From Dipteris shenzhenensis (taxonomy: Eukaryota), in the NCBI GenBank assembly GCA_047967505.1, contig CM106538.1: a stretch of 64,000 bases of DNA, one strand, 5' to 3'. Below are positions 3,171 through 57,954 of this stretch, piece by piece. Numbering within the stretch: position 1 is the stretch's first letter; every line of letters starts with the position of its first letter. Both the position numbers and the translations under genes were made by a program. Below the pieces are notes generated by a model. It worked only from the letters and a program-made list of their open reading frames with translations, made no database searches and was not told where the DNA came from.

Positions 3171-5553
3171 CCATGGCTAGGCGAGTAGAAGATGATAAGT
3201 TTTCTTGGCAGTATGCACACATGCGCGCACACACATGCACACACACACACATGTATGTGTATATGTATGTAGCATGCATCCACATGACACACTCATGCAT
3301 GCATGTGCACATGCACACACATAGACGCACATACATACAAAGTACGTTTGGTGTAAATTACGCATTTGTACAAAAGATAAGATGAGAGAGAGAGAGAGAG
3401 GCGGGTGCGAGGGGGGGGGTGCATAAGTATGACATGTCTTGTTTGTTATGCCTCCATTGGTTATCTTATGCTATTAAAGTAGATTGTTAAGTAATAAGGA
3501 ATGACAATTGCCAAGCCTTTTAAAAAGTGCAAATGGTACTACACTTTAAAGTCCCAAATTCCAAGATTACATGTCAATTAACACATCTGTGTTTAGATTT
3601 TGCATACATATGGGGTACCCACACTTAATCTCAAAGTAGACTCAGTTGAGATTTGTACATCAGTATGATTGGAGGATGTGGATCTTGGATAGGATTTGAA
3701 TGGGTAATGGAGACTTGGTAGCCTTAAAAAATGAATCGATTAGAGGCAAACTACAAGGCTTGAAAATCATGGACAAAGTATTATTGGTCTAATCTTTGAG
3801 CGTTTGTATAAAATATGATCATATCTTTTACTTGTGACAGTCACTATTCATAGTAAAAGTTCCCTCCACAAAGTATAAGTAAATTAGTGCATCACTTTGA
3901 ACAAAAAATGCTTAAACACTTGTTAATACATCTAATGAATGGCATAAAAAGTCAATTTAAAGTTGTTAAATACATAAAGCATGAAATAATCACTACAACA
4001 TATTCCCCTAATCACTTGAAAGGCTTTTCTATGATAAACCAATTTGAATGCAATTTTTCATATTCATAATTTCATATATAAATAACTGACAATGCAAGTA
4101 GTCAAGGATTTGGTACTAAGGTACTCTTGCTTTAGAATTGGTTGATTATTACACTCACATTTTCTTACCAATAGGTTAACTTGTCAAGCTCATCGATGGA
4201 ATGAGTGATGTGAGTTTTTACCAACAATGGCAACAAAAGGGCTTACTTGGTGGCAATGCAATGTCATGAGAAAGAGTTTGTATCAAAAAGCACGAGGCAA
4301 TGTGCTAAATATTGTGGTGTGCTCTCTATGTGGTGAACTTTCCTTTTCTTTTTTTTTAAATATAGAGAAGATAGACAACAAGTGCTCTCTCAAGGCGAAT
4401 TTGACATAAAGCATGACTGTGGTTACTAGGTAGGGAGGATGGCCATTGTCAATTGTCGGTGCGAGCGACCTTGGAACTTTACTTTCCAGGCTGAATTATA
4501 AGAGAGGTGACCCATTTTGAGACTATCGAGGGGCACCCTGCCCTGGCTCTAGTCTGGAAGCAGGAATCGAAGCAAGGTCGGTGGCCAAGTAGGCAGGAAG
4601 CCCTACCACTCGCGGCTTCCGGAGCTAAAACCTACAATTGATCTACTGTGCCCAAAGATAATGCTATTCCGTATTCTGACTGAAGTCTGTGTATTAACTA
4701 CAGATTCTGAACATACATCGTATACCGTATACGGTATTAATTATTGAGTTGGTGTTGGTGAAGAGAACCGGCTCCACACAGGGTGGAGCTTCCAAAGCTG
4801 GGCTATGGCTTCCATGGGCACCTTCTTCGTCTCTGGCAATAGCACATACACGAACAGGGCCGCCATCACTTGCCACGCTGCGAAGAAGACGAACAGTTCC
4901 GCCTTCATCTTGCATAGCATCGCCAAAAACAACTGCGCCCCCGCAAATATGAAGAAGAATATCACACAGACGTTGATGCTCTGCCCCGCAGATCTTATCT
5001 CTAGTGGGAAGATCTCGCTTGGCACCAGCACTCCCACCGGCCCCCACGACCACCCGAACGCTGCTACGTATATGGACACCGTTATCACCACCACGATCGC
5101 GTCCTGTTTCGGCAGTTCGTTGTGCGCTCCCAGCTTCAGGTGCAGTATCGCTGCGGTTATTATCTGAAAGCAAGCAGTCATGCTTATGTAAGCGTACGAT
5201 GGCTATGGCTGCAATGCATGCACGCTGAATTTTGTAGGCTAGTCTGATCAGATAGTGGGAGCCAATCTAATATCGGACAGCACTGATTTACCAGAGTTAT
5301 CACCATCACAAGACTTCCGTTGAACAAGAGCGCCCTGCGCCCCAACCTGTCCACCACCAAAGAGGCAGCCGTAGCAGCCCCTAGCGCAGCTCCCCCCAGG
5401 ATCACTGCAGAATACAGAGATGTACTTGCACCTAGCCCGAGTGTCTGGAAGAGCACAGGAGCATAGAACGTGATAATATTGATTCCTGTGAACTCTTGAA
5501 AGAAGGGGATGGCAAACGCCATGACCAGCTCGGGACGGTATCTGCGCTCGAAT

Positions 5554-5585
5554 CATTAGGAAAAAAGGGAGCTCATTTTGGGGCC
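5554..5585 (+). repeat. Left terminal inverted repeat CATTAGGAAAAAAGGGAGCTCATTTTGGGGCC
   Basis: Matches the reverse complement of 17759-17790 at 30 of 32 positions. Confidence 0.93.
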
Positions 5586-6044
5586 TTTTATGGTTTGGAA
5601 AAATAAGCTCTCAACCAATCAATAGAAGGCCAACGTAACGTTGAAAATTCACGAAAATAAGAGAAAATAGAAAAAAGAAACAATACTTTATGTAAGTACA
5701 AGCGTGCTACATTAATGAGGAGATTGGTTTTTTATTCGTAGAAGATCTTTGGACAAGAAGATAGAATCTAAACTGACATTTTATCTGACAAGATCCTTCC
5801 CGCTTCCACCTTCCTTTGAATTTTCAAATGTTGTGCCGCCTTTCGTGCGAAAGGTCTACCATTCTACACCATTGCCTCATTGTGCAACAGCCTTCCTTTT
5901 CCAAAACTGCTCCCTTGATCCTGTTTGGCGTAGAGTAAGATGTTTCTCGTCAACTGTCTGTTTGCCCACTTTCTCTTTCTTGAAACTTCAAATTGTTATC
6001 TTAGTTACATTACTTTGCTATTGTTACAGATTCAGAAAATCTCC

Positions 6045-7622
6045 ATGGTGAACCAAAACCACGGCCGTTCTTGTGCAAGACGCTCTGTGGATGATAATGT
6101 TATGAAGGCAGAATTATACCAAACATCCTTACCCCGTCGACCTGCTTCTTCTATTTCGTCGGTAGAGAATTCAAGTACAGTCAAAACAGAAGGAACTTGG
6201 GAAAGGTTTAGTGTTTCGAAAGGAGCATGGGTGCTCATGCAACCTAGCAAAAGAAAAAGACCCCAGACAAAAAACATTTTCTTGGCATCGTGGAAGGGAA
6301 GAGTACGAGATTTTAAAATCATCAAAGGGAAGATATCCGTGAAAGAAGTTTTGATTCAGCACGTGTACATGCATAAAGAACTTGTCTTGCGAGACTATCC
6401 AAAAAATCTTCCGCAACACAGGCCTAATTGTATATTTTTCTATTGTGGTTTTTTCCTTCATGAGGTGTATGGATTTTTAAGATGAAGCTTTCTCTCTTAA
6501 CTTATTGACATTCTTGTGTTGTTTTATTTCAGATTTATATCCTTCATCGTATGAGACATGGCAAAACATCGATTGTATTCTGGGATTTATAGATGTTCTG
6601 CATGGATCGATAGGAGAACAACAATACCAAGGTCGATGTGCAACAGAGCTAGCTCAATCGGGTATATTTTTTACTGATCATTTTTATCAGTTGCTAGACA
6701 AAGCTAACACACATGGTGTATTAATAAAACAAGACCTTCCGGCGTGGAATTCGGTGGATTGGCCTCACCCACATTCTAGTGTTACAGAGGCATATAGGGC
6801 GAAGCTTTTTACAGAAGTACAGAAAGCTCTGAGGCCCAATATTGCCACTAGGATAGTAAAAATTTCTTTGTGCATGCCTCTCACAGTTTTTGTAGACTTG
6901 TTTAATACCTTTCCAGTAAAGGTTTCAAAAACAATGTTCACAGTTAAAGCAATAAATTCGGCATGCATGCCACAATTTTTGGATAAAGGTTGGGATAAGA
7001 AGACATGTAGTTCAGTGTTTTGTGAGGTGGTCCAACCTTCTATGCAACTGAAGTACATGGTTGCATCACAAAATTTTATTTTCTCTTTTTATTACAAGCG
7101 CAGTCGAATGCTAGGCTCAAAGCTTGTCCCAATGGACCAAGATGAAGAGTCGTTTGGTGCACAAAATAAACTTATTGATATTGATGTTCTTGAGAATGGT
7201 GATGTGGTAGCCAATATCTCGTTAAGAGAATGTTGCTCCCTAGCTCAATTACGCAGTGACATTCTGTTTGAGACTGAAGGTTCTATCTCAAACGACTTTT
7301 TATTTATCTACAAGAACAGAAAGGTACACCATCTGATTTATCCTAGTCTCTATAAGCATTGCTATTAGTTTAATTTACCAGCTCAATTACGCAGTGACAT
7401 TCTGTTTGAGACTGAAGGTTCTATCTCAAACGACTTTTTATTTATCTACAAGAACAGAAAGGTACACCATCTGATTTATCCTAGTCTCTATAAGCATTGC
7501 TATTAGTTTAATTTACCACTCTAATTCATATTGCTTTTTTGCAGTTACTCAGAAGAAGAGAGAGCTCAGTTAAATGCAAAGACATAGAAAATTTTAAAAT
7601 TGAGATCACACATACTCCATAA
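6045..7622 (+). CDS. Transposon cargo gene A: putative BAH-like domain plus C-terminal ubiquitin-like-fold protein, about 417 aa (exons 6045-6429, 6533-7323, 7545-7622)
   Basis: Open spliced frame with GT-AG introns. The pattern WKGRVRDF..VLIQHVYMHKEL..YLYPSSYETWQNIDCILGFIDV resembles BAH, and SLAQLRSDI..FLFIYKNRK resembles a Ubl fold. A diverged homolog at 56.7-57.8 kb supports it being coding. Confidence 0.7.
7243..7518 (+). repeat. Exact 138-bp tandem duplication spanning the exon 2/intron 2 junction of gene A
   Basis: GCTCAATTACGCAG...ATTTACCA occurs at 7243-7380 and 7381-7518. Confidence 0.9.
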
Positions 7623-7706
7623 AGAAAGGTTTTGTATTCAATCAAGTAAGATTTTGTACAGAATTGTTTAGCTGAATCTGTAGAACATATTTCTAACATC
7701 CATTTT

Positions 7707-9807
7707 CTATTTATGTACAGTTTCATCCAGAGGCTGCTCTACATTTTCTGGAGGATCTTCTCTCTGCTGCTCCATCCTGTCCGTGCTCCATCCTGTCTCC
7801 TCCACTGCCCCAGAAGCCTCTCTTTGCTGCTTCTCCACCTTCTCCTCAACATCAGCAGCAGGTCTTTGCTCCTGTGTCTGCTCCTCCTCAGCACTCTGTG
7901 ATTGCTCCTGTGGCTTCTGGTCCTCAACATTAGGTGCTTCATATGTGGGATCAAGGTGTATGACACCTTCTTGTACTTTAGAGCTTTCACCCAGCTCCAC
8001 AGTAGCTGCTACAATAGGTTTGGGGGAGGCATAGCTCAAAAACCTCCAAATTGTATGAGCTCTAAAATTATGTACATAGTTGGGGCTGAAGCTATCCTCT
8101 TTCATCTGCAATGGCAGAGGATAATTTAGAACACTTTGTATCATTATGAATTATCTTCAAGCTAAATGAAAAGTATTTTTCCTTACCAGATCTGGCTGTT
8201 CCTTTTCAAAGTAGCTTGAAAGTATATATTTTGCATTGATCAGCACCCTCCATCCACAACTACTTGAATCATTTTGTTGTGGTGTCTGTACAGTTAGAAA
8301 AAAATGTTAGAAACTGTGAGCATCAGCACAAAACAAAATTATTCAATAAGTTCAAAGACATAGCATTTAATAGACTTTTTACCTCTAGACTTAATGGCTC
8401 TATTGAATCCAACAGAGAGACATTTGGAGGACAATGATCCAATGCATCTAATAGCCTTCTAATACAACTACAATATGTATAATTTAGTTAGTATGGTATC
8501 AAACTAATGAAGTTTTGAGTTCAAAAAGCACACACAGTACTTACAATTTCAGCTCTCTGTGTGTGTTTTTTAGAGAGTTGAATAGAAAGCATTGCTTCTG
8601 CTGGATGTCAATAGACACAAAACTCCAGTGGTCACTGCATAAGGAAAAAAATATAAGAAAATGAAAGGCTACAAGAGCTCCCAATATTAAAGAAGAATCT
8701 TAAAAGAAGTAGTCACCCACATACCTGCTATGATATGGAAGTAGCAAAATGTCAATTACTTCAAAATTGCAGTGTTTGAACCAGCTAGAAATACTCATGG
8801 GAGTCTCCTTTGCATCTCTTAATCTAGAAGAAATGGCTGGATCAACAATATGGACTGTATGTTGTACAGAGGGATGAAGCCAGCTTCTCATCATGCTGCA
8901 TAGGATCAGAACATAATTAGGGTAGGTTATAAAAGAGTTACAAGGAGGATTGATTTGCAAAAAATGTAAAATTTAAAGACACTTACTAGAGCATTGCAAG
9001 AATGATAGTATCTGAGCAATACTCATTCTTGTTAGCCAATGCTGCTAAGCATTGTTTTATCAAATCAAAATCATTGACTGAAACTTCATTTTCAATATGT
9101 ACAACTACATCAGGGCCCAGCTCCTTCAACCTTCTATGTATGTGTAGCTCCTTCTTTCCAGTCTCCACATCTATAACAGATTTTGTTTCTTTTATTTGCT
9201 GCTTCAGTGAGTCCTCATAAGCAGCCTTCCCTCTGGTGTTCTTTGAGTGTGTTACCTCAACAACCTTTACCTCATCAACCTTGACCTTCCTTGTAGGTGG
9301 AATTAGCAATATATCTCTCATTTTGATGTCCTGCCATTCCACAGGATGAACCAGCTTGTCATATCTCCATCTCACTCTGGACAAAGTGTTGAAATCTTTG
9401 GCCATCAAAGTCACCCTGTGAGCATGGGCTGCTACAAGCATTGCATCCTCAAAATATTTCTCCAGGTAATCCTCTACCATTTCCTGCAAGGAAAGAATGG
9501 CAGTTCTATTCCACCTGAACCCAAGGTTCCAACTGTCACAAATTTCTCTCACCAGTCTTTGAAAGGGTGCTTTGGGTATTGCAAAACCTATGGCTTTCTG
9601 TTGCCTCCTTATTTCCCTAAGCACACCTGCACCCTTATTCAATCTTTTGGCCTTTTGCTTGAGCAAGCTCATTGGCTTACCCTTCCTGCCATGTGAAGCT
9701 CTTCCCTTTGGAGGCACATTAAACTTCTTGGAACCTGTCCCAGCTGCTATTGCTGCAAGACTTGGTCCTTTGCCAACTTGCCTTGCAGTTGATTTGGTTC
9801 TTGCCAT
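7707..9807 (-). CDS. Transposon cargo gene B: histone H3-like fold fused to an Ulp1/SENP-type (C48) cysteine protease, 554 aa (exons 9807-8987, 8895-8725, 8634-8545, 8467-8383, 8285-8187, 8105-7707)
   Basis: MARTKSTARQ tail and histone fold LREIRRQQK..IPKAPFQRLVREI..LQEMVEDYL..FED..HAHRVTLMAKD. Then SDTIIL, LLPYHSSDHWSFVSID, FNSL and PQQNDSSSCG (His/Asn/Gln/Cys catalytic pattern). Five GT-AG introns with matching phases and no internal stops (1665 nt). Confidence 0.88.
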
Positions 9808-9859
9808 CACTCTGAAAAACTGCATACAAAGGATTGGAAAGAGATCACAGACATGAAGA

Positions 9860-11150
9860 ACATGTTCTAACAAAGAAAAGGCAATCACAGGGGTGGAAGA
9901 AGCCAAATAGAGAAATTTGCAATAAAATGCGATATGAGCAGTTTGGAATTTCAAACAGGTCCACATCGCATTTTGCTGCAAATTTTTTAAATGAAATGCT
10001 GGTGCACTCCTACAGTGATTTCTATGTTTCTCCAACCAAATACAGTATGAATGGAGGTCATGCAAGAAGATCACATGCAAATATCACACTTGAAGATCTG
10101 CATTCCTTCAGTGATTTCTCTGTCTTGGTTTGAGCCTATGCATTTCCATACAGGATGTAATTTTTCTATTTTAGGCAAGAAGATTGCAGAGACTAAGGGG
10201 AGTCACAAAACCAGACATGTTCTCACAAAGAAGGCAATCACAGAGGTGGAAGAAGCCAAATAGAGAAATTTGCAATAAAATGCGATATGAGCAGTTTGGA
10301 ATTTCAAACAGGTCAACATCGCATTTTGCTGCAAATTTTTTAAATGAAATGCTGTTGCACTCCTACAGTGATTTCTATGTTTCTCCAACCAAATACAGTA
10401 TGAATGGAGGTCATGCAAGAAGATCACATGCAAATATCACACTTGAAGATCTGCATTCCTTCAGTGATTTCTCTGTCTTGGTTTGAGCCTATGCATTTCC
10501 ATACAGGATGTAATTTTTCTATTTTAGGCAAGAAGATGGCAGAGACTAAGGGGAGTCACAAAACCAGACATGTTCTCACAAAGAAAAGGTAATCACAGAG
10601 GTGGAAGAAGCCAAATAGAGAAATTTGCAATAAAATGCGATATGAGCAGTTTGGAATTTCAAACAGGTCCACATCGCATTTTGCTGCAAATTTCTGAAAT
10701 GACATGCTGGTGAACTTCTACAGTGATTTCTTTGTCTCTCTAGCCAAATACAGTATGAATGGAGTTTATGCAAGAAGATTACAGCTATGGAAGTCAAAAA
10801 ACCAGAACATGTTCTCACAAAGAGAAGGCAATCACAGGGGTGGAAGAAGCCAAATAGAGAAATTTGCAATAAAATGCGATATGAGCAGTTTGGAATTTCA
10901 AACAGGTCCACATCGCATTTTGCTGCAAATTTTTTAAATGGCATGCTGGTGCACTCCTACAGTGATTTCTATGTTTCTCCAACCAAATACAGTATGAATG
11001 GAGGTTATGCAAGAAGATCACATGCAAATATCACACTTGAAGATCTGCTTTCCTACAGTGATTTCTCTGTCTTGGTTTGAGTCTATGCATTTCCATACAG
11101 TATGTATTTTTTCTATTTTAGGCAAAAAGATTGCAGAGACTAAGGGGAGA
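9860..11150. repeat. Tandem array 1 (four units, spacings about 353/355/239 bp), each with a ~73-bp imperfect palindrome
   Basis: AAATTTGCAATAAAATGCGAT...ATCGCATTTTGCTGCAAATTT starts at 9913, 10266, 10621 and 10860. Confidence 0.9.
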
Positions 11151-11358
11151 ACCCATTGTTACTGACCTGGAATCTATCTGTGGATGTTCTGTGCTGCTGA
11201 GGAGTAATCTGTGCTGAGGATGATTCTGTGCTGCTGGACAAGATGCTGATGCTGTAGAGTATGGAGGTAGGGAGGCAAGAGAGCAGAGACTGGAGGGCAA
11301 GAGTTCTAAAATAGGATACCACAAAGAAGTGCAAATAGAATTAAAGAATCACTAAATC

Positions 11359-11436
11359 CCACACGTGTGGAATCTAGTCGTTTTTCACACGTGTGGATGG
11401 GACCCAGATCTCTTGGAGTTTGAAATCTGGCACGTG
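11359..11436. promoter_or_regulatory. Putative bidirectional promoter core with three G-box (CACGTG) palindromes
   Basis: CCACACGTGTGG at 11359-11370, CACACGTGTG at 11386-11395 and CACGTG at 11431-11436, midway between divergent genes B and C. Confidence 0.45.
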
Positions 11437-11874
11437 TGAAAGTACACTTTATTCCTTGGAACTTGTGCCATTCATGATTTCATCATCAATACCACAACCA
11501 CTTTTCCCTCCCCTGGATTCCAATCTCTCATCCCTGCCACGACTCTCTCCTGATCCTTTCTCTCTAATCCTTTCCTACCCAGCACACTCCATCCAGACTG
11601 CAACCTGCCTGAAGACAGTACTGCCAGATCTCCAGGTTACCTAGAGTGCAAAGTTCAAGCTAGAGAAAGAGCAGGAGATTTACCAGTGCAACTCAATCAG
11701 CATGGAAAAGGAAAAAAAAGATCAGAGTTCTAGTTTGGTTTCAATGTTTTTCAACATTTATTTCTTCCATCCATTGGATTTTTGATGTCCCAATGTCTTC
11801 ACTCAGCTCCATCCTTCTTCCACAATGTGGTAAATCACCCAGAAATTAGATTGTAGGTTGATATGAATAGAAAC

Positions 11875-12365
11875 AAGAAATTTGCAACAAAATGCGAGGA
11901 GAGTGGTTTAGAATTCTCTAAACAGCCCATATCGCATTTTGCTGCAAATTCCTGTTGTGGACTCCTTGCTCATGAAAAGTTTCACTCATTCCATTTTTTC
12001 TCTTGCATATGAGATCATAGTGTCCAGGAATCACTGAAATGAACCAAGTGCTTGATTTGACATGCACATGAACAGAACTTGAGAATTTGCAACAAAATGC
12101 GAGGAGAGTGGTTTATAGTTCTCTAAACAGCCCATATCGCATTTTGCTGCAAATTCCTGTTGTTGACACATTCCTCATGAATAGTTTCACTCATTCCATT
12201 ATTTCTCTTGCATATGAGATCATAGTGTCCAGGAATCACTGAGATGAACCAAGTTCTTGATTTGACATGCACATGAACAGAATTTGAGAATTTGCAACAA
12301 AATGCGAGGAGAGTGGTTTACAATTCTCTAAACAGCCCATATTGCATTTTGCTGCAAATTCCTGT
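11875..12365. repeat. Tandem array 2 (about 2.4 x 205 bp) carrying a related palindrome in inverted orientation to array 1
   Basis: AATTTGCAACAAAATGCGAG...AT(C/T)GCATTTTGCTGCAAATT at about 11878, 12083 and 12288. Confidence 0.88.
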
Positions 12366-12690
12366 GTATTATTTGTTTCTCACTTCTACCTCATTAATTT
12401 GCTATCTTTAGCCCTGTGGAAATCTTCCTTGATGATGAGAAATGTTTTTGTTTTGGAACAGCTGGCTCCCAGGCCCCACCTTTCAAGAGGAAGCTGGACT
12501 TTTCTGCTGCTATAATTAGACCACAGCAATCACCAGGTGAGTGATGAGATGTCATGAAGGAATTATCTGGTGATATACAATGCATTCACTGATTGCATAT
12601 GTCAGCATATAGAATTCATAGTATATAAGTTTTTGAACAGGCAAAAAGAAGAGGCTGGAGCAGAGTGCTGATTCTTCCATCAAAAAACAA

Positions 12691-14332
12691 ATGGAACCAG
12701 AAGAGGACAGTTCTCCAGATTTGCTCCTATTTGAGTTTCTTCACAAATGCAAGGCTCAGAGTAACTTCCATTTATACCACAGTATTTTCAACATGGAGTT
12801 CTCAATGAGCTCTGTACTGGAGCAACACAAAGATTTTCTTTCAGACTATTGGGATGCCTTCAAAGAACTGACAGAGGCAGGAAGAATTGTGGGAGGTGAA
12901 AAGGTTTTTGTGCACCTTAATCATATTGTCTCCAATGACAGGCTGAGGTACCATGTGAGCAGAAGATTTGACAGCCTGCCTGCCTCCTATAAATTCAACT
13001 GTACTTTGCACACCAGAAAGTGCAGAGTGCTGGAGGAGAGCATGGCATTTCTTATGTACATTGTCTTCAGTCAGGAGTCTTTGGATGAACAAGGGCAGGA
13101 AACAGAAGAAGAAGACACATCTGAAGCTTCTGAAAAGGAGGATGTTTCTTTGGGCTCTGAAATGGCAGAGCAAGAAGAAGATATCAACCTTCAGGATGAG
13201 GGGCTGCAAGTGGCTGCTCTTGACCTTGTTCAACTGAGGAAAAAAACTCTGAGGGGAGCAGAGCCAGTTGAAGATTTTGATGTTCAGAGCAGCAACTATG
13301 CAGTGCCCATGCTTCCAGGTGTGTTGATTGGTGGAAAGGATTATGTTTTCCTCCATGATATAGAGTGTATGTTTGATTTGAGGGAGGACTATGCCATTTC
13401 CCTTATTGCCCAGGCTTCAAGGCTTGACAAGGAGGTTGGCATAGAGGATGACCATTCACTTCTGGCTTTGGAAACAATGTTTGATCCTGTAGAGGCCCTT
13501 TCATTTTGTTTCAAAGAGGCTGAAAAGTTCCAAGAGCCAGATGAAGCTGCCTTCCAACTCACATGTCAGGAAGCTATGAATCTCTCAGCTCTATACACAG
13601 AAAAGACTAGAGAAGAGGCTGTACAAGAAGGGAGAGGGATAAATCTTTGGAAAGATGAACTGCTTGTTGCTGATGAAAATGAGAAGGTACTTCAAATCAT
13701 ATACTTTGACTTCTGCTTAACTTTAGTTTTGTAGGTTGTGTATTGTCTCACTCCAATCCTTTGATATGTTGCAGCTACAAATTGAGGATGACACATTCCT
13801 CCAGAGATCAAGTGGAAGCAGGCAGGTTGGGTTTCGCGAAATGTCAGGCCTAGCTCATTATATTCATGATCTAGGCAGTGCCAAGATCTTGATTTACCAT
13901 AGGCAGTTGAGCAACAATGGAGAAGCCATTGTTTACTTCCTAAAATGTTTGTCCAGGGCTTTAGGTGGACATGCTCTTTCATGGCAAAAGGAAAAGATCA
14001 TTTTGATAGAGAGGTTGTCTGCCATAGATATATTTGGAGATTATGTGAATAAGCAGGCCTCTAGGGCCGCTTACTTTTTGTCTTACACTTCTTATGCATT
14101 AGCATGTGGTGTTAAGGACCCCAAATATCTGGAGGGCTATGGAAAACACCAGCTCGTAAGGTTTCGAGAGCCACCCATGATTGCATCAGGCCACACAGTC
14201 CAAGAAGAGGAACAGGTGGAGAGAGCTGAAGAAAAGGATAAAGAGACAGTCGACATCAAGCCAATAAAGAAGAAAAAGACTCCAATCAAGATCAAAAAGA
14301 GAGTTCCGATGAACAGGCCCTGGGAGAAATAG
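12691..14332 (+). CDS. Transposon cargo gene C: acidic protein of unknown function, at least 517 aa (exons 12691-13686, 13775-14332; probable extra 5' exons at about 12462-12536 and from 12641)
   Basis: Two long ORFs joined by a phase-0 GT-AG intron (13687-13774); Glu-rich segment and basic NLS-like C-terminus KKKKTPIKIKKR. Confidence 0.65.
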
Positions 14333-14656: not shown

Positions 14657-17389
14657 CTATTCATGTTTACTTGTCCATTTATGGTTTCTAAATATCTTCG
14701 ATTCCCTCCACTGTCTATGTCTCTCTGCTGCAATTGAATTGTCTAGAGCTTGTCTTCGTCTTTGCTTTTGGGCTAGAAGAAAAGCAAGCTTGATTTTGGA
14801 GCTAGCAACTTTTCTTTTAGCATGCAGCCTTTGTAGTATGCCTCGGTAAAACCATTGGAAGACTTCCTTCAGACTATTCGCCTTCTGACTCCCTCCATAG
14901 TGTTGTGTGTGTCTAAAAAATGCATTACGTGCCATGTAGTGAGACTTCTCCATGCCTTGGGTAGACCAAATAGCTGGGCATCCATACTTTTTGACAAAAT
15001 AGGGAAGGTGGTTGTATATGATATGCTGTAAGACATAAGAATGCATAGTAAGTAATTAAAAAAAAGAAGATCACACTTAAGTAAAAGAAAAAGACATAAC
15101 CTTAGCATGTAGTGAGTTATATTGCAGGTTGTCCACGCGTCTTTCATTGACTTTCCAAAATGTTTAATTGCCTCCTCAAAGTTCTTGTAATCACTCTTTG
15201 TCCATGTTACTTTGTCACAGAACATGAAGAGTTGATCAAGAGACCTCCACACCTCTGCCTTCCTATTTCGTGCTTCCCCATCTGCCTCATGATCTTTCAC
15301 AGCATTATGGACTTGCTTCCACAATCCATAATTAATCTTTGAAACTGCTCTACCTTGCCTTACTTGCTTACTGTGTTTGGGTCAAGACAAGAATCTTCTT
15401 GCCTTAACACCACCAATAGAGGGCTTGATTGGTACCTCCTTGCCATTGGTAGACTTTTTAAAATCCTTTGTGATTTGAACATCTCCTCCATGCAGACCTA
15501 TATCGGATAACACTTTTTCCAATGCTTGAAGAGCATCCTTTCTTTTTCGGGACGGAGTTTCCAAGCAAATCCAATATATAAAAATACCAATTTCTCAATA
15601 ATTCGACATAGACCATGCAATGTGCAGATGTGAACATTACATAGTGGAATGTCCAGAATGGCCTTGAAGTCAGGGTCAACTTTATCTCTATTAGGTGCTC
15701 TCTTCCACCATTTTGAATCCATTACTTGAGCTGATTCTTTGCAGTAAAGACAAGGAGACTTTGAGTTGCCTCCTTTACTAATGTTATACATGCACTTAAG
15801 TGTTTTAAGATCCCCGGCCATGTGTCACTCTACTTGAAAATCACCTTTTCCTGCAACATGGAGATTCTCGCCTTGCACTTGTCTTTTGATTATTGTTGGT
15901 ATTTCCGTGTGATGAAACACCCAATCTAGTGTTTCATGGTCTTCGGTCTTCACCTGTGAGATTATAGAAAACAAAAGTATTACTATATCAGATTTGAAAA
16001 CAATGACCAAAATCAAGTATAAAACAACCCATGATCATACCTGGAACGACGAGCCTAACCACCATATGTGTTTCTCTGACTGCACACTAAAATACTTCGA
16101 ACTCGCTTCAGTCAATGATGTATCAATTGCTCCATTCATCAATGTAATAGTAACTCTTTCCATTTTCTTTTCCTTTACAACCTCACACTCATCCAGTTTG
16201 ATAACAAATTTCAAAATGCCTTTGCACTCCTCAAATGTTATTCCATAAAACTCGACCATTCTTTTTTGAAGTTGTTGCAGATCTAAAAATATATTGTTCC
16301 AAGGATCATACACAGTGGTTCCTTTAACACCATGAAATATTTCTTCAATATGGATATATTGCCCAATAAATTCATCTATACTTTCATTCAAATGACCTCT
16401 TATCCTCCACACGGTTGCTGGATTTGGCAGTAAAACTCGTTTAATCCTTTGATCTTTCAAAGTTGAGGATATCGCATGGAAAATCGAACTATATCCCTTC
16501 CTGCTAACTCCACTAACATCAAGAGCCTCTTGGATTATAGTGCCATCAACTTGATTATTGGATACAAAGTCCTCTACAACATTGCGTTTGACTGTTTGTA
16601 TTTTTTTTCCTCAATCAAACCTTTTGCTACACCGCAAGAAAGCAATCCTTTCATTTGTTTAACAGGAAGAAGGTTCGGGTCCATATTTTCTTTTGCAGGC
16701 TCCAATAATTTCCTGTAATAACAACACAATATGACTATATTATTCAGCACCTCCATTCTTGTTTTGCGACAATCAACGAAATAGATATAGTCTGGAAGAG
16801 AGCCTTTTTGAGTATACAAAATGATAAATTTCAATCTAACCTTGCTTCCTGAATTCGTCGCTTGCATCCACCAGTCCCAGCCTTCAAATTTGCAATGTTT
16901 TTAATCTTCCTGCTACGTTGTCTGTCTCCAAGCACGGTTCTCTTCTTTCTTGCTCTTGTCAATTCTTTTTTACTCTTTGAATGCTCCTCGATTTCATTCT
17001 GCAACTGCTGCTCCAATTTTGCACGAATGGCTATCTCCTCCATCTTGGCCCCCTTTTCTTGTAGGTACATCATTTTATACGTTTCCGCAAATGCACTGCG
17101 CTGAAATATAACCAAGAAGTCCATTTTGTCCATCGCCGGCAAACCTCAGTAATGTGGTGGGATTGACAAATGGAGGTGTAGAGTTTTTTACATGACATTT
17201 TGGATATATGCTTCCATCGCACCATAAGTCAATATGTTGAAGCCCTTCTCTTCTCATATTTTCCCGCTGTTGAGCATTCAGCACCGTATCCTTTCGTCTT
17301 TTTTGTGCTGGAGCATATTGTTCTTCCAAGTCGATGTGAAGATGGTGTAATCGCTTCTTCTCAGATAGTGACTCACTAGTATCGGCCAT
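14657..17389 (-). pseudogene. RAG1-core/Transib/Chapaev-like DDE transposase, inactivated
   Basis: Ordered motifs LGDRQRSRKI, VSRKGYSSI..LLPNP, FVIKLDE (D), AGDLK..SPCLYC (D + CxxC), CTLH, ITHYM|HIIYNHLP..KKYG..WSTQGMEKSH (H..H, E). In-frame TGA at 15825-15827 and 15382-15384; frameshifts near 16601-16608 and about 15545. Confidence 0.78.
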
Positions 17390-17758
17390 TTTTTGTGCTC
17401 CTCAGGTTGCGAAGTTTGTTTTTCAATCTCATAGTCGTTTTGTAACATGAATCGTGGAAGTGTGGCGGTATCCATGTGAATATTTTGAAAACTTGCAATC
17501 ACTAAGTTCAGTGATGGACTCTTAATGAAAGACCTGCACACGTCGGCCAAAGAGATGCGGAATCTTTCGTAAACAAAAAAAAATCTAAGAGGATATTTAA
17601 TACAAAATCGTGTTAGTCAGACAAAAGATTATCTTATTCCTTTTTGAATTGACAGTTCTGTAGTACTTACTGACAAATCTGAGCCACGTTTCCGTATTTT
17701 ACTATTTTTGAGGTCTTTTAGGAGAGAAATAAATCAAAAAATAGTGAATTTCTTACAG

Positions 17759-17790
17759 GGCCCCAAAATGAGTTCCCTTTTTCCCTAATG
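17759..17790 (-). repeat. Right terminal inverted repeat (reads CATTAGGGAAAAAGGGAACTCATTTTGGGGCC on minus)
   Basis: Partner of 5554-5585. Confidence 0.93.
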
Positions 17791-20094
17791 ATGTTACGCC
17801 ATGGATGCTTCACTTGTTTGCAAATCTCGCTAGCCTCTACCAGATCTTCAAATTCCTCTTGCACATCTAATGTTCCCCGCATCTTCTCCAAAATGGCACG
17901 GCCCTTGTCAAGATAGCCTCGTTGGATAAGACTGCTGGGTGAATCAGGCAAGAAAAGGGCTCCTATCACGATGACAGTTGAAGGAATGATGGTCGAACCG
18001 AGGGAAATCCTCCAGCCCCAGGGAACAATATTGGAAGTCCCGTAATTCACAAGGAAAGCCGTGAAAACGCCAAAACTTAGAGCCACTTGGTTCATTCCAT
18101 TGAGTCCACCTCGTAACCTGTGGGGAGCAACTTCCGACAGGTACAAAGGCACAGACTGCAGGGCACGATTCAATCTAAGCTTCGTTTCTCTTTCTTACGT
18201 TTTCTCTCAAAAGGAAGCAGCAAGCAATCCATACTTATAAATTTCATAGGGAAGTTAAAGCTCAAGATGCCGAACTTGATTTGTAAAGCCGAGGCGGATT
18301 CCCAGTAAGATACGTCCCAACAGTAGCATTGCCAGGTCCTGAGCAGCACCGTTGAGGACGGACCCAACAACGAAACAAATCCCTTCCGTCATGATAGAAG
18401 CTCTCCTTCCATACTTGCTCGTAAAGGTCGCTGCAAATAACGAGGTAACTAATCCCGCTAGATAGAGCGAGGACGTGAATGCCGTGAGGACTTGACTGTT
18501 AAACTTGCAATAGTTGTCGGTCTTGGCTGAGTGTCGCTGGCGATAAACCTTGGGAAAGAATTTGAGAAGGAAGTCATCCATGGCGGTAACGCCCCCTGGA
18601 AGCGTCAAATGGTTAAATACAATCCGCGCAAAACTTGTATATTTCGATTATTGGAAGTCGGAAGCGGACCTGAGATTCCGAGATCGAAGCCAAAGATGAG
18701 TCCACCGGTGGCGGCTGTGATGCAAGCGAGAATTACGTAAAGGGTAGCATGGCGAGTGTAATGGTAGTCGCGCTTGGAGGAAGGAAGGAAGAAGGCGCCC
18801 CCCGCCATGGCTTCTATGGGCAGGAGCTTCTTGTCCAAAGAGAATTATAGAGGTTGCGTGCTGGTTTGCATTTCTAGTCTCTAAAAGTCACTCACAAGGT
18901 TCACACCTTCCAATTAGATTCACACATCCCTTCCACTTTTTGCTTGCCCCGGTTGCTCCCTAGTTCACTTCAAGGAGGTGGGTCCCTAGTTCACTTCATG
19001 GAGGTGGGTCCCAACGCCACCCTCAAATGGCCAAGCACCTACATCTACCTCAAATAGAGAGAGACGACTCCTATTGAACATCCATGACTTGGGTTCTCAT
19101 ATCTCGAATGTGACTCCCAAAATCATTAAGCCAAGATGCTTCATAAGAGTCCAAGCTATCCGATCTCCCTTTTTGACTCTTGAGGCCTCTAGGTTCCCTT
19201 TGTCACTTTCTCTTGTACAGCACTAAGTAACTAGTAATGTATACGACAACTTTTCCAACAATTAGGGAGACTTGAACGTGTGCATGGTAATGCTATTAGA
19301 ATCATAAATTTTAAGTGAGCGAATATGCATTCTTCATGTATATTGCATTCATTTATGAATTTTATGAACGCACACATCTATTCACCACACACTACAAAGG
19401 GCCCACAAATCTTAATATCATTGGGACCATGAGAACTAAGGATTTGATATGCTCCTTTTAACCAGGTGTGATCATGTTTAACTTTCTATTTCGTTTTGGC
19501 AGTACCTTCTCTATAGGCACTATGCCCTTGGCACATTTAACCTTTGATAATTTCCTCATAATGAAGTACATGCACATAGCAAAAAATGAGAGAACATGCT
19601 ACTTATGACATTGTACAAATGAATATATATCTAAATTGAAACAATTTACATAAAAATCTCAACCATGTAAGTATAATTTCAAATATGAATATAAATAAAC
19701 ATACATATCATATATATATCCATTTATATATAAAGTATTGTTAAATAATATAACCACACACCTTATGGAGGGAGAGCTCGACACACTTCCACTTGCCCTC
19801 CTCTCATAAATAAGAAAGAATAATTATTTATGGTATCATGAGAGTTCTCAACTATTGTGTCAATGGTCAAAATGGGCTAGAACCTCCTTTTATTGAAAGC
19901 TTATGATCGTCAAACCCAATGTTATTTCTGGTTGACATCTTGGTATTATATTTGAAAGCCTCGATCAACATACATATTTATTATCTACAAAAGTGTCTTA
20001 TTCAAAGAGATTCGATCAAAACCAATCAACATGAGGAAATGTATTGATGTGTGAATGGTCCACAATACCTTAGAGACAACCTTGGATACTTACC

Positions 20095-20141
<47 letters not shown>

Positions 20142-20178
20142 TCTCTCTCTCTCTCTCCCCCTCTGTGTGTGTGCGTGC

Positions 20179-20233
<55 letters not shown>

Positions 20234-21039
20234 CATGCGTGTGTGTGTGTGTGTTGCCACTATTCCTCTCATTTCCAAGTTTTAAGGGTGTTGGTCGTCT
20301 ACAGTCATGTCATTGCTCATTGTAGCATAGGAGTTCACAAATGTAGCATAGGTTCTAGGGTCATATTTTGGTGAGAGGTGTAGTGTCAAAAGCAATTCAA
20401 GTTCATGGTCAAATGAGAAAGAAGTAATGATCACAAGGATTGAGGGAATTCTCACCTCCAAAGTAGTCAAAGGGTTTAGCAAAGGGTTCCAGAGTTTAGA
20501 AGGATGGTAGGGTTAAGAAAGCTAACTAGGGTCCTAGGCTTTAGAAAGACCTCATGAGAAAGCATACTAGGGTTGAGGAGTGGAGAGCTAGTCTCCTTCA
20601 CATACTATGAATGGGGTTTAGGGTTGAGGAGGGGTGAACAACAGTGAGAAGGAGGAGGGGGCTCAATGCACAATTGGGTGTAGGGACAAGTTTGGGGCCA
20701 CAATGCAATGCACTGGTGGGCGATAGTTTGAATTTCAGGTGGACTCGCTCTCTCACCATAAAATTTTCCAATGTAATGATTGCCTTACTGGAATAATAAT
20801 GAGACGCAATCTATTAAAACTTATTGTTCTGAACACCACAGAGATGAACACATGTCACTACATGAGATGTCCTACCTTCCTTCGTATAGTCTCTATGCTA
20901 TATCTTTGTACATTAGACTATCCACAATTTGTCATGTCATCTACCCGCAACTTGCCACCTGTCATCTATATGCAGCTCTCTAGCATTGATCTAGATTTGC
21001 AACCACTACGCTGACATTGGCTTGGTGCGACCACTACGC

Positions 21040-21768: not shown

Positions 21769-22127
21769 AATGTGGTCGGTGGCCTATTTCGGGACTGACC
21801 CCCAGTCAACCGTTTTGGGCGGACTGGGTCGGTCACCGAATTGGGTCTAACCGACTACGACTAGTGGCTATATAAGAGCGAGCTCGTGAAGCCCATTTCA
21901 TCACTGGCTATGGCAACCCTGATTCCTTAGCATCCAGCCTCTGTCCTCTACTGTTTCCAGCTTGCCATCAAAGCTTCTTTCACAGGAGCGCACGGTTGGG
22001 AGGCAGCGCCATCTATTGTATCAGATCCACAGTAATCAAATTTTTGATTCTCCATACTATCTGTTTTCTCTCTTGCGTACGAGATCTTGTTATCTGTTGA
22101 GCAGAGACGTTGTATTTTTTTCTTACA
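21769..22127 (+). mobile_element. 5'-truncated solo LTR of the Copia family found at 57955-64000
   Basis: Highly similar to 58288-58628 and to the reverse complement of 60682-61020; ends ...TTCTTACA. Confidence 0.8.
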
Positions 22128-23226
22128 GGAAGCACCATCCAACCACACCCAATATTTTCTTGTACATGGGGATCATCATTTTTTAGCCATTCCTAATGCA
22201 ATAGAAAACCATGCTGCACAAATAAGGTGTCTTGTTCCCTATCATCCAAAATGTAGAAAGGGTATGTGCATTGCACAGTGCACTGACTTGGACTCCGAGT
22301 TAATAAAGCATATTGGCATCAGCTGTACAAGAAACAAGCAAATGATTGTACATGATATGCACTAGATTGATATCTGGTTGTTGTACTAGTGAGCACTTTG
22401 TATCTCATCTTGTTCTTAAAATGAGTAATTTTCTGCAAAATCTATGACAGAGACAATAGTGTCATGGAGAAATTTGGCAAGGCACTTCCTAAATTGGTTA
22501 TCTTGCTAAGTGGCTGTGAAATTTTCATTAGGGGAGATTTGGGATCAAAAAGGGCCTCATAAGGAATGGATTAGGAAATGGATTAAGGGCTAAGCAAGCA
22601 AAGGATGGGTGCCAAAGATCTTACAAATTGCACTTCCCTAGGCATGGGGGTGAGCCATTGTCCCCCAAAAAGTACAACTTCCCATTTCCCAAAACATGCT
22701 CCTCTTAGCTCTCTCTTGGAGGGTCCCTATCCCAAGAAAGTGTCTCACGTATGCCACCTCACCCAAAAATTTAAATTTTTGAAAAAAGTCTAAATAGCTT
22801 GGAAATCCTCCCAAACTTTTGACCAAAACCATTTTTCGACCCGCAACCATTTTCCTCTAACCTTTAAGCTTGGATACCATCCAAAAATCTATACCTATTG
22901 ACCTAAACCAATGCTCATCCCCCACATTGAGTAGAAACCATTCTCTAACCCATATCCATTGACCCAAACCAATCTTCATATCCAAATCCATTTTCCTCTC
23001 ATCTTGTTAGTATTTTGTAAATTTCATATCCTATCAGTCTCCATTGCAAGATATCACCAACATGAAGCACAAATACATCCTACACATTGAGATGACACCC
23101 AAGTATGCCACAACTTGTCAGTGCAATGTCATGAGGCTAGTATATCAAGAAATGTACCCTTAGACAAATAATCCATCAACTCGGCATATTCATGCTCACA
23201 ATAGTCAACTACAAAGAGTTCAACTT

Positions 23227-23645: not shown

Positions 23646-23881
23646 CTTAAAATGGCATCTACCCTTGGGTGCTGCAGTCCACCCCTTTTTTTTTCCTCTA
23701 TCAAGATAAAGTTTTTTTTGGTGATGGAATTTCACCACACATTACAAGGGTATGCTAGTGGCCATTTGCATCTTCATTTTAAATAAATTTTCTTGGGAGG
23801 AAAATTGTACTATAAAACATTTCATAGAAACAAAAAGAATTGCTTTACACGCCTTTAACAAAAAAGATTTCCTTGAACTTT

Positions 23882-23934
<53 letters not shown>

Positions 23935-24899
23935 ATTAATGTCCATAGAAGAGCAACAGGTCTATGGGATAGCAAAAAAACCATCTAGTACATCTGCTTT
24001 AGGGAGGGAACATGGCAGCTCCCAGGGAGTGCAAAAGCAACCCAATTATTTAGAGCACTTACATAATAGTTTGAAAGAGTAATCAACCATACATTAGTTT
24101 TAGATGGAGAGTCTTTTGGTTTTGGATTTAAACTCTTTGATTAGTGCTATGCCTTCACGAAAAACTACCCATTTTCCATCCTTCCTAGTAGCCCTGACTT
24201 TAGCTAATTCCATTGCCTTATTCTTCAATTGAGCTCATGTAAGTTCCTCAGATATCCATACCTTGGTCCCTTTCAATTTGCAAGATTGTCAAAGGAGCTT
24301 GATCTATAAATCTCGTGACTTAAGTGTAAGGATAGCATGTCCTCTGGAGTGCTGGATATTAGTTGCTCCCTCATCATCATCATCATCATCATCATCATCA
24401 ACCTTCCATTCAATATTAGGCATGGCTACTTTGACATGTGCTAAAGTCTCACTCAAAGAGTCATCATTTTTGAACCATGCTTCAAGGAGGCCCCCCACCC
24501 TAATCTTCAATGCACTATCACGTTTGGCTTTGTGTTCTTTGATCTCTTCTTGGATATCAATCTTGTTTGCCTTTGTGTCAAAATCGTCAATAACTTCTTT
24601 CTTGATTGATTGTACTTTAGTATGAACCATATTGGATCGCCCAAGGGCCAGATGGCAATCCACTCCTTTTTTAAAATTTGTCAAGATAATTTTTTTTGGG
24701 GTAATGCACTTGCACTATAGATTACAAGAGTATGCTAGTGGCCGTTTACATCAAGAAAATATCGTGAGAGAGAAAAATTGTATAAAATAATACATAGAAA
24801 CACAAACAACTGCTTCAGACATGCCTTTAACAAGAATGATTATCATTGCTTCCAAAAATTTGGTAACATCATGTAAAATAGATAGTGTATATATAGCTC

Positions 24900-25420
24900 G
24901 GGATGTTTTCAATGATGGATCACTTTTGATTCGACCATCAAGAGCTATATCCTTGTCTATAATGGTCACCCTCTTTGCATATATACAGCAAAAATTTTCA
25001 TCTTCCAAAAATATAGTGACCAGTTGCACTTTTGCAGCCTCTTGCAATGTTGCCAAGGCAACACTTTGTATTCTTGCATTATACATGTATTCTTGCAAAA
25101 TCTCTTTCACCAAAAAGGAAAAAGGAGCTTTAGGCATAAGCGATTCGACACTCTTCTCACACCTCTTGATTTCTAAGAGTGCTCTCCTCCACGGTTTCAT
25201 TCAATATTTGCTTCTACTACTACCACCTCCACCATTGCCACCGCTATTGCCACCACGACCGTCGCCGCCACTGCTAGGGTGACCACCTCCTAATTTCTTT
25301 TCTCATTCTTTCTTTCTCTTTGACTTTCTTGTGTGGGATGTTTTCTTGGAAATTTGTGGGCTACTAGCTTGGACTTGCTTGTGGGTAATCGAAAGTCTCT
25401 TTCTTCCTTGGGCCCATTTC
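24900..25420 (-). pseudogene. Second, decayed histone H3-like gene
   Basis: KPWRRALLEIKRCEKS..LMPKAPFSFLVKEI..RIQSVALATLQEAA..LEDENFCCIYAKRVTIIDKDIAL; Gly-rich upstream tail interrupted by stops. Confidence 0.75.
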
Positions 25421-28776: not shown

Positions 28777-28826
<50 letters not shown>

Positions 28827-28966
28827 AAAGAAGTCTAGAGAGAAAAATATGGTGAGAGGGGGGGGAAGAGAGGGGATAAAAAGGAGAGTGGAGAGAAAAG
28901 GAGGGAAAAGATAGAGTAGAGAGAGAATAGAAAGGGGGACGAGGGTGAAATGGAGAGATATGGGAT

Positions 28967-29006
<40 letters not shown>

Positions 29007-57770: not shown

Positions 57771-57954
57771 TGGGTAATCTCAATAGGATAGTGTTGTACA
57801 CATTAGGGAAGATTTGGCGTCTCAAAAGGGCCTCTAATTAGTGTTTCATAATTTCAAGGGATTAGAGAGGGATTTGAGGTGTTCCAATGTTTGTGTGGGG
57901 CAATGGTACATTGAGGTGTACAAAAGGACATGTTGTGCATTTATAGGTGGGGAG

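Follow-up and report, generated by a model that had tools for sequence, protein, structure and literature searches.

Why does a DNA transposon in a fern genome carry a gene for a histone H3-like protein, and what does this gene actually encode? The question is raised by a locus of Dipteris shenzhenensis (contig CM106538.1 of assembly GCA_047967505.1), of which we analysed a stretch of 64,000 nucleotides, hereafter called the window; all positions given below refer to it. An earlier annotation made from the letters alone (hereafter the sequence-only reading) had described positions 9380–9807 as a transposon-borne histone that keeps K4, has lost K9 and mixes features of H3 and CENH3. Our analysis indicates that this H3-like stretch is very probably the first exon of an intact six-exon gene encoding a fusion of an H3 with an Ulp1/SENP (C48)-like domain (H3-Ulp1), and that a 12.2-kb DNA transposon carries this gene as cargo.

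The six-exon H3-Ulp1 gene and its transposon

Translation of the minus strand from 9807 yields MARTKSTARQVGKGPS..., followed further on by ...REICDSWNLGFRWNRT..., ...REICDSWNLGFRW... and ...AAHAHRVTLMAKD..., and the strings that the sequence-only reading quoted for the tail, the fold and loop 1 are all present in it. The reading frame stays open past the H3-like part to 8987 (273 codons), which adds 127 codons beyond the fold in exon 1, and this exon ends in a GTAAGT donor. The feature at 9380–9807 is indeed an H3-like histone, but it covers only part of a frame that is then spliced on to further exons, and the predicted product is an H3-Ulp1-like fusion rather than a stand-alone histone.

The gene model comprises six exons on the minus strand (Table 1). 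All of its introns are of the GT-AG type, with GTAAGT-like donors and (T/C)GCAG-like acceptors, and the exons sum to 1665 nt, corresponding to 554 codons and a single terminal stop codon. The spliced product is collinear over residues 1–422 with a protein of Adiantum capillus-veneris (P0114; E = 3.5e-65). It consists, in this order, of the H3 tail and fold, a conserved extension of ~50 residues, a long helix, the C48-like domain and an acidic tail, so that ~400 residues are appended after alpha3 of H3. The consensus of the extension is RWRYDKLLHP..F.D.KMRDIL.IPP.RK....EVTH..TR. In an AlphaFold2 (AF2) model of the exon 1 product, a 40-residue helix was predicted at residues 192–230, and the strand-strand-helix start of the next domain was folded confidently, with a predicted local distance difference test (pLDDT) value of ~80.

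The gene is contained in an element of 12,241 bp that lies between inverted ends and is inserted in the coding sequence of a sugar transporter. A 24-nt core of the inverted repeat has two matches in the window, located only at both ends of the element, against 0.00 expected. On the minus strand, the Pfam Sugar_tr profile is matched at positions 32–121 and 122–234 before the insertion and at positions 250–335 and 327–452 after it. Because the profile is split between positions 234 and 250, the 12,241-bp piece interrupts the coding sequence, and this transporter copy was probably disabled by the insertion. With the borders marked by slashes, the element ends read ..AACAT/CATTAGGG... and ...CCTAATG/ATTCG.. 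on the minus strand; in our reading, the transporter frame (..NIFERRYRPELVMA..) is restored when the flanks are joined as AACAT+ATTCGAG, with no duplication involved. The assignment of the histone to a transposon, already made in the sequence-only reading, is borne out by the inverted ends and the split transporter.

Table 1. Positions of the H3-Ulp1 gene, its parts and the other features of the transposon and its insertion site
Feature	Position	Strand	Description or basis
Host sugar-transporter coding sequence downstream of the insertion	4741..5549	-	Sugar_tr profile positions 250–452
Terminal inverted repeat, low-coordinate end	5552..5590		39 nt, 90% complementary to 17754–17792
Exon 6	7707..8105	-	End of the Ulp1-like domain, acidic Glu/Gln-rich tail, stop codon; splice model
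Exon 5	8187..8285	-	Gln and catalytic Cys (..PQQN....CGW..); tblastn with P0114, P0142
Exon 4	8383..8467	-	Variable middle of the Ulp1-like domain; alternative acceptor 8458 in frame; splice model
Exon 3	8545..8634	-	Catalytic His (HW pair), then Asn 17 residues on in the place of the catalytic Asp; Pfam, spacing as in P0142
Exon 2	8725..8895	-	N-terminal half of the Ulp1/C48-like domain; GT-AG borders, tblastn with P0114, P0142
Exon 1	8987..9807	-	Parts in the next four lines
Exon 1, residues 198–273 and 2 bases	8987..9216	-	Long predicted helix, then two strands and helices opening the Ulp1-like domain (..SDTIIL..); AF2, collinear with P0114, P0142
Exon 1, residues 147–197	9217..9369	-	Family-specific conserved extension directly after alpha3; alignments, extension model
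Exon 1, residues 47–146	9370..9669	-	Complete H3 histone fold (alphaN, alpha1, loop 1, alpha2, alpha3); Pfam, alignment, AF2
Exon 1, residues 1–46	9670..9807	-	H3-type N-terminal tail, begins ARTKSTARQVGKGP; no ARKS; A1, R2 and K4 invariant in 31/31 family tails
Repeat arrays separating the H3-Ulp1 gene from the plus-strand open reading frame	9871..12446		Four ~353-bp units (9871–11117), three 205-bp units (11832–12446); repeat search
Two adjoining open frames, convergent on the transposase gene	12637..14332	+	365 and 201 codons, stop to stop; list of open reading frames
Transposase-like gene, broken	14657..17401	-	Homologue P0121; same strand as the histone gene and upstream of it
Terminal inverted repeat, high-coordinate end	17754..17792		39 nt, pairs with 5552–5590
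Host sugar-transporter coding sequence upstream of the insertion	17793..18581	-	Sugar_tr profile positions 32–234

The histone module

Residues 40–141 match the Pfam Histone family (PF00125) with an E-value of 8.5e-27 and 94.3 bits against a cut-off of 26.4, and this match is therefore not due to chance. Proteins drawn from metagenome contigs served as reference for ordinary H3 (P0122) and as stand-in for H4 (P0265). In BLASTP, the window protein shows 43% identity to P0122 over residues 1–146 (E = 1e-30). The fold residues 59–146 align with P0122 without a gap, which means that loop 1 is of ordinary length, as the sequence-only reading had stated.

The H3-type tail of the window protein is ARTKSTARQVGKG. 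It retains K4 and has Gln at position 9 (codon CAA, 9778–9780) and Val at position 10, and no ARKS motif occurs in the whole 273-residue first exon, all of which agrees with the sequence-only reading. As encoded, the window copy cannot carry K9 methylation, and it has no K27-type ARKS either. A stretch of the RKGKP(M/I)H type, which is conserved in the family described below, lies inside the tail (residues 1–46).

The AF2 model of exon 1, built from a 23-row alignment, has a mean pLDDT of 65.9 and places the histone helices at residues 48–76, 81–92, 99–129 and 136–153. The residues that align with R116, T118, H113 and D123 of H3 are invariant or conserved in at least 90% of the 23 family sequences, so that, as judged from the alignment, the H4-facing and DNA-facing residues of the H3 module are retained. 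When residues 44–160 were modelled together with the H4 stand-in, the predicted complex scored 0.79 against 0.01 for the best control, although H3-H4 is a solved pair and the score may reflect this likeness only. The mark applied is reached by 51 of 78 solved complexes and by 2 of 108 mismatched pairs; the runs share at least 80% of their contacts, and the pLDDT of the partner is at least 71. The predicted H4 handshake thus shows likeness, not binding. A Foldseek comparison of the single-chain model with PDB gave no match at E of 0.001 or below, the best rows being H3 and CENP-A chains at E = 0.25–0.5; this result is uninformative because modelling of a lone histone chain does not reproduce its nucleosomal shape.

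In summary of the comparison with ordinary H3 (H3.1/H3.3 type), the window protein shares the ARTK.TAR start and the complete collinear fold, is predicted to pair with H4, and keeps the residues that align with K56, K64, R116, T118, K122, H113 and D123. It differs in having no ARKS at K9 or K27, in the replacement of the RYRPGT stretch before alphaN, in the changes of RF to RW after loop 1 and of IRK to IPK, in the transposon-borne location of its gene and in the ~400 extra residues that follow alpha3.

The protease-like domain

Exon 3 alone matches Pfam Peptidase_C48 (PF02902) with E-values of 7.5e-4 and 1.1e-3 (19.8 and 19.3 bits against a cut-off of 20.7). Both domains are found in one chain in P0142, an annotated protein of Adiantum nelumboides with 403 aa (Histone, E = 2.6e-23; Peptidase_C48, E = 1.3e-5), in which the C48 match attains 25.6 bits against the same cut-off and covers profile positions 2–182 of 217. 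For the C-terminal 161 residues of P0142, the best PDB sequences are SENP2, SENP8, SENP1 and yeast Ulp1 (E = 1.4e-3 to 1e-2). In the alignment, HW falls on the catalytic His, Q....C on the Gln and Cys, and Asn on the catalytic Asp (SENP2; His, Gln and Cys also with SENP8). The window model shows the same spacing as P0142, with His 333, Asn 350, a QQN triplet from 392 and Cys 399 (CGW). Thus, in both members in which the exon is readable, the predicted domain has a C48 fold whose catalytic positions read His-Asn-Cys rather than His-Asp-Cys.

A gene family named so far from Adiantum ferns, and its relation to CENH3

A word-indexed protein search gave 110 matches among 1516 candidates. The 25 closest relatives have E-values from 7e-88 to 1.5e-29, and the remaining matches, which are ordinary or odd H3s, follow from 7e-21 on. 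Three of the closest 25 are named, each as 'hypothetical protein [Adiantum nelumboides]', and a search among longer proteins added two more from A. nelumboides and one from A. capillus-veneris; all named family members are thus from Adiantum ferns. At least 10 separate gene models of A. nelumboides, located on different contigs, belong to the family. When 1.84 billion representatives were searched with a profile, 16,629 H3-type matches were obtained, among which the family is represented only by those extending beyond profile position ~140. A hidden Markov model of the extension (residues 142–197) finds 60 of the 264 proteins collected (23 of the 60 are rows of its seed alignment), superseding a stricter regular expression that found 33 proteins. 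The family is ~40–45% identical to the window protein and diverse in itself (35–55% identity), yet its members have in common the beginning of the tail as well as the fold, extension and protease motifs. When metagenomes were scanned with the family alignment, the extension was found in none of the 80 loci kept of 450 confirmed; these 80 loci represent ordinary H3 (39–45%), matching residues 1–146 up to 1–172.

In several of the public Adiantum gene models (P0157, P0114, P0123 and P0148), the sequence is truncated or chimeric and is labelled only 'hypothetical protein'. One of them skips the exon of the catalytic His, and one fuses a piece of transposase to the H3 fold.

A tree of the fold was calculated from 42 rows of the family and 90 rows of other H3-type proteins, after removal of those that lacked the anchor motif or had fewer than 85 residues; the second open reading frame (ORF) of the window was omitted. 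The outgroup consisted of search returns with one named CENH3 row (P0074, from Urochloa), not of a curated H3.1/H3.3/CENH3 set. All 42 family folds lie on one side of a branch with a Shimodaira–Hasegawa-like approximate likelihood ratio test (SH-aLRT) value of 100, apart from the 90 other rows.

This separation bears on the mixed H3/CENH3 features proposed in the sequence-only reading. Residue by residue, these features are real: RW after loop 1, IPK before alpha1 and HA.RVTLM are all shared with P0074. However, the alignment with P0074 contains a 2-residue gap in loop 1, which is absent from that with ordinary H3, and reaches 77.4 bits compared with 98.6 bits for ordinary H3. The start of the window tail is conserved and H3-like, and the CENH3 row falls among the 90 other rows of the tree. 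As the family forms a separate branch and loop 1 is not lengthened, kinship with CENH3 is not supported.

Evolution of the tail and selection on the gene

Tail residues were counted in the 31 of the 60 family proteins that have a MARTK-type N-terminus, the other 29 being fragments or proteins with a different start. A1, R2 and K4 are present in all 31 tails. Position 3 is T in 29 and P in 2, position 5 is variable (Q in 15), position 6 is T in 29, and A7 and R8 are each found in 27. Thereafter the residues vary: 17 tails have K at position 9, 8 have R, 3 have V, 2 have Q and 1 has W; position 10 is E in 10, V in 5, D in 3, L in 3, S in 3 and another residue in 7; and position 11 is G in 19. 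Because residues 1–8 are near-invariant in a family that is only ~40–45% identical overall, the tail start is more conserved than the fold, and the tail is not evolving neutrally. K4 retention, claimed by the sequence-only reading for the window copy, therefore extends to the family, and neutral evolution of the tail, which it had named as an argument against itself, can be dismissed.

The A-R-K-S context is retained in none of the 31 tails, because the three with Ser at position 10 have V9 or K8. ARKS is likewise present in none of the 60 family proteins, compared with 126 of the 201 other H3-type proteins collected. An acidic residue occupies position 10 in 13 of the 31 tails. Phosphorylation of S10 blocks the readers of methylated K9, and an acidic residue after position 9 could act as a permanent 'phospho' mimic.

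The fate of K9 itself is different. A contig from another data set that is ~94% identical to the window over positions 9637–9815 (179 nt with 11 differences) carries T instead of G at 9780, changing CAA (Gln) to AAA (Lys) at position 9. K9 is therefore found in a near-identical copy as well as in 17 of the 31 tails, the very observation that the sequence-only reading had set against its own proposal. Its claim that the variant cannot carry the K9 mark applies to the window copy (Q9) but does not extend to the element family: on the copies compared, K9 loss is copy-specific and not a property of the family. A softer form of the idea survives, since no tail or family protein has an intact ARKS.

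Close copies of the gene were compared in three sequencing runs, which are DNA contigs that display no joints and bear on copies, not on splicing. The counts given here refer to the 40 listed differences of 101, 31 of which lie in modelled exons. In the histone fold (codons 60–145), 9 are synonymous and 1 is non-synonymous, and in exon 2 the corresponding numbers are 4 and 1. The extension and linker carry 2 synonymous and 4 non-synonymous differences, and the tail (codons 10–38) carries 2 and 8, respectively; none falls in codons 1–9. Intron 1 (91 nt) shows six substitutions and a 1-nt deletion, intron 4 contains an 18-nt insertion, and three of the four listed indels are located in introns or upstream. 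This distribution by region bears out the exon-intron model. If about one-quarter of random changes are synonymous, 9 synonymous changes out of 10 would be expected in ~3 of 100,000 cases, and the substitution pattern indicates that the fold and the first Ulp1 exon are kept by selection. Other data sets contain several sequence variants of the H3-Ulp1 gene.

The transposase and its affinity

A single relative of the transposase-like gene was found (P0121; 599 aa, E = 2.4e-27), which is 36% identical over 16529–15732 and matches again over 15698–15106. In the window, an in-frame stop at 15825–15827 replaces the Trp of the conserved FQVE-W-HMAGD motif, a second stop occurs in ..RRFLS(stop)PKH.., and near 15540 the frame changes within an A-rich run, possibly through a sequencing error.

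The transposase is possibly RAG1/Transib-like. By eye, its layout consists of an Asp, a C..C pair ~20 residues later and a W-S-T-Q-G-M-E motif near the end, which we take to fit RAG1. In a language-model atlas, RAG1 clusters ranked first of those with a name, both for P0121 (0.96, with 190 of 256 features) and for the window ORF (0.90); this assignment is only a lead, because the recognition values, 2143 and 1972, are below the mark of 2300. Pfam searches including RAG1, at E up to 1 or 10, gave no match for the transposase frames or P0121, and PDB sequence searches at E up to 10 gave no RAG1 or Transib chain. No MULE/MuDR family was among the Pfam matches for 32 frames of the element or for P0121. 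An AF2 model of the homologue from a 3-row alignment had a mean pLDDT of 35.7 and was unusable. Transib elements have 5-bp target-site duplications and ends starting with CAC (the CACAATG heptamer), and the spacing from the second Asp to the Glu is 206–214 aa in Transib and 253 in RAG1 (PMC1131882). The ends of the fern element show no 5-bp direct repeat and no CAC start. The distance from the candidate Asp (HMAGD, 15812–15810) to the candidate Glu (GMEKSH, ~14950–14948), both residues being assigned by eye, is ~287 codons in DNA including a probable short intron.

An H3 fold beside the same type of transposase recurs in two further places, namely the A. nelumboides gene model P0157, which joins a transposase piece of this type to a family H3 fold, and positions 25756–24946 of the window. 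The latter belongs to a second decayed locus on the minus strand (24751–25756), in which a transposase remnant with stops (25756–25533) is followed by an H3-like frame (25200–24751). This frame matches Pfam Histone (3.3e-16), has neither tail nor extension, and is nearer to ordinary H3 (50.5% identity and 87.8 bits to P0122) than to the family (mean of 44 vs 77 bits). Long inverted (CT)n/(GA)n microsatellites at 20076–20262, 23874–23959 and 28710–29042 flank the 20–29 kb region that contains this locus.

Repeat arrays and other features of the window

The repeat arrays that separate the H3-Ulp1 gene from the plus-strand frames contain 14 copies of TTTGCARYAAAATGCGA, arranged in 7 inverted pairs with arms ~33 nt apart, against 0.01 expected, and all of the copies lie within 9871–12446. 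The TTTGCARYAAAATGCGA array probably serves in regulation or protein binding and may be a bidirectional control region. The plus-strand ORFs at 12637–14332 have no Pfam match, and a PDB sequence search with the ORF at 12691–13734 gave no match either; among the 32 frames of the element submitted to Pfam, only the C48 exon matched.

Several further features were observed. A perfect 138-bp tandem duplication (7242–7517) lies downstream of the stop codon of H3-Ulp1. Two related open frames on the plus strand, one in the low-coordinate part of the element (6874–7368) and one beside a copia-like region (57440–57841), both begin with MP.T.FVDLFN..P.KV.KTM... and have no Pfam match. Positions 57971–64000 contain gag-integrase and reverse-transcriptase frames that were judged by eye from their translations to be of the Ty1/copia type. 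They occur in two inverted copies of ~92% similarity (arms 60126–60477 and 63649–64000), and related pieces resembling long terminal repeats are found at 21773–22129.

Comparison with known systems

Each half of the fusion has precedents. At least 97 Arabidopsis Mutator-like elements (MULEs) carry a peptidase C48 domain (PMC6117577), and rice ULPs occur fused to transposase-type domains (PMC12903978). The fern element resembles these ULP (C48) genes of plant Mutator-like and En/Spm-type transposons, as they are described there, in having a C48 domain as cargo, but in the fern the C48-like domain is fused to H3 and has Asn in place of Asp, and the transposase has no MULE or En/Spm Pfam match. 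In fungi, hAT transposons of Dothideomycetes have captured H3, and the copies are described as plain transduplicates, mostly rendered inactive through repeat-induced point mutation (PMC6710886). Both cases involve H3 coding sequence that lies inside a DNA transposon and is amplified with it; as far as this description goes, the fern H3 differs in being a diverged, conserved and selected module fused to another domain. The VANC proteins of the Arabidopsis VANDAL transposons reportedly counter epigenetic silencing and act on repeated non-coding motifs (PMC5735166, PMC10398659). A motif array adjoins the H3-Ulp1 gene in a similar manner, a likeness drawn from descriptions and not from sequence, and any anti-silencing role of the fern protein would be by analogy.

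We found no report of an H3-Ulp1 fusion or of a fern transposon histone in the open-access full-text literature, supplements aside. With the same restriction to main texts, neither ferns nor histones are mentioned in a bioRxiv survey of DDE transposons, and ULP, SUMO and histone H3 do not occur in a 2026 atlas of Arabidopsis transposon products. Transposon-borne C48 domains in plants and H3 capture in fungi were thus already known separately, and their combination in H3-Ulp1 is apparently new.

Among host genes, macroH2A is an H2A whose core histone carries a globular macro domain at the C-terminus. H3-Ulp1 likewise combines a core histone with an appended C-terminal globular domain, but the histone is H3, the gene belongs to a transposon and the appended domain is protease-like. 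To our knowledge, it is very rare for a histone variant to carry an enzyme-like domain as an appendage.

Possible function and alternative explanations

What might such a protein do? We propose, with confidence evenly balanced for and against, that it acts on chromatin to counter silencing. The histone module would pair with H4 and place the protein in or on nucleosomes, and the C48-like domain would thereby be brought to chromatin, where it could deSUMOylate, or at least bind SUMO on, nearby chromatin proteins. In the tail, the A1-R8 segment with K4 is preserved and could be recognised by the readers and writers of the active mark. Having no ARKS context for K9 or K27 methylation, the tail would take K4-type marks and not the canonical K9/K27 marks. 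Together these features might favour an open state and help the element family to resist heterochromatic silencing. The TTTGCARYAAAATGCGA array, which occupies 2.6 kb between the gene and the neighbouring ORF, may be the site of action, similar to the arrays bound by VANC. We infer incorporation into nucleosomes, enzymatic activity and the anti-silencing effect from these features of the predicted protein.

Several observations weigh against the gene model and its proposed role. The relatives that span the exon junctions are all gene models or unspliced ORFs, and no RNA run covers 7600–9900. The single catalytic exon of the window, scored without the rest of the spliced protein, stays under the Pfam cut-off. 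The catalytic Asp is replaced by Asn in two of the two members where the exon can be read (the window and P0142), and with Asn at this place the domain may be weak or inactive as a protease. Tail residues 10–38 change freely among close copies (2 synonymous to 8 non-synonymous of the listed differences), and all such ratios rest on the listed subset. A 2-nt deletion at 9739, in tail-coding sequence, is present in one low-depth contig, so some copies are broken. As read from its stops and frame change, the transposase is dead, so that the H3-Ulp1 gene cannot be helping the window copy to move by itself. Finally, an inspection of the element ends by eye for target-site duplications of 2, 3, 5, 8 and 9 bp revealed no convincing direct repeat.

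A role outside nucleosomes is conceivable but doubtful. As a soluble histone mimic or decoy, the tail and fold would occupy H3-binding chaperones, readers or methyltransferases, or guide the Ulp1-like domain to them in the nucleoplasm. This would suit a protein that is most strongly conserved in its first eight tail residues, that carries ~400 residues at the C-terminus of H3 and whose isolated chain is modelled with only moderate confidence (mean pLDDT of 65.9). It does not explain why the whole fold is under purifying selection (9 synonymous differences to 1 among those listed) or why the counterparts of the H3 contacts R116, T118, H113 and D123 are kept, and the predicted pairing with H4 stands out from its controls, a result qualified by its likeness to solved structures. 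The same purifying selection, together with the integrity of the gene over six exons next to a transposase with stops and a frame change, could also be accounted for by domestication, that is, by an H3-Ulp1 gene that now has a function for the plant, such as chromatin regulation, and is merely housed in what is left of a dead transposon. We consider this unlikely, because inverted ends enclose the gene within an insertion that has disrupted another gene, and the family is multi-copy and diverse in one fern genome (at least 10 gene models on different contigs). Moreover, the H3 fold recurs beside the same transposase type, and other data sets contain several sequence variants.

The model of the sequence-only reading, in which a stand-alone transposon histone of mixed H3/CENH3 type lost K9 to avoid H3K9me2 and CMT-type silencing, is quite improbable. 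The window copy does have Q9 and V10 and no ARKS, none of the 60 family proteins has ARKS, and position 10 is acidic in 13 of 31 tails. Nevertheless, K9 is present in 17 of 31 tails and in the near-identical copy, the protein is not stand-alone, and it neither groups with CENH3 nor has a lengthened loop 1. It is more improbable still, and indeed hardly credible, that the gene is a functionless fragment, a transduplicated housekeeping H3 that decays within the transposon as in the Dothideomycete hAT elements. Transposon capture of H3 is documented (PMC6710886), and the second H3-like frame of the window (24751–25200) looks like such a remnant. The H3-Ulp1 gene, by contrast, has 554 open codons in six exons with consensus splice sites, synonymous changes dominate in its fold, and a deep, diverse family (35–55% identity) has retained the beginning of the tail together with the fold, extension and protease motifs. 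We therefore retain the reading of an intact H3-Ulp1 fusion gene carried by a DNA transposon, together with the proposed chromatin mechanism at the strength stated above.

A more far-reaching version can be formulated, to which we assign a low probability. Fern DNA transposons, possibly the first RAG1/Transib-like ones in plants, might build their own silencing-resistant nucleosomes from an H3 that keeps the K4 end of its tail, has no ARKS context left for repressive methylation and brings a SUMO-protease-like domain into chromatin. RAG1 is licensed through the reading of H3K4me3 by RAG2, and for this reason the invariant ARTK4 tail might even serve the transposase of the element itself.

Implications

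A practical consequence concerns annotation: genes of the H3-Ulp1 family should not be labelled as histones or as CENH3. For the biology of the family, the H3 tail represents a natural experiment, in which residues 1–8 with K4 are fixed and the contexts of K9 and K27 have been dismantled differently by lineage. SUMO matters for heterochromatin, and the H3-Ulp1 fusion ties it directly to a histone. If a transposon does supply its own H3, mobile DNA would have a new means of acting on the chromatin by which it is silenced.

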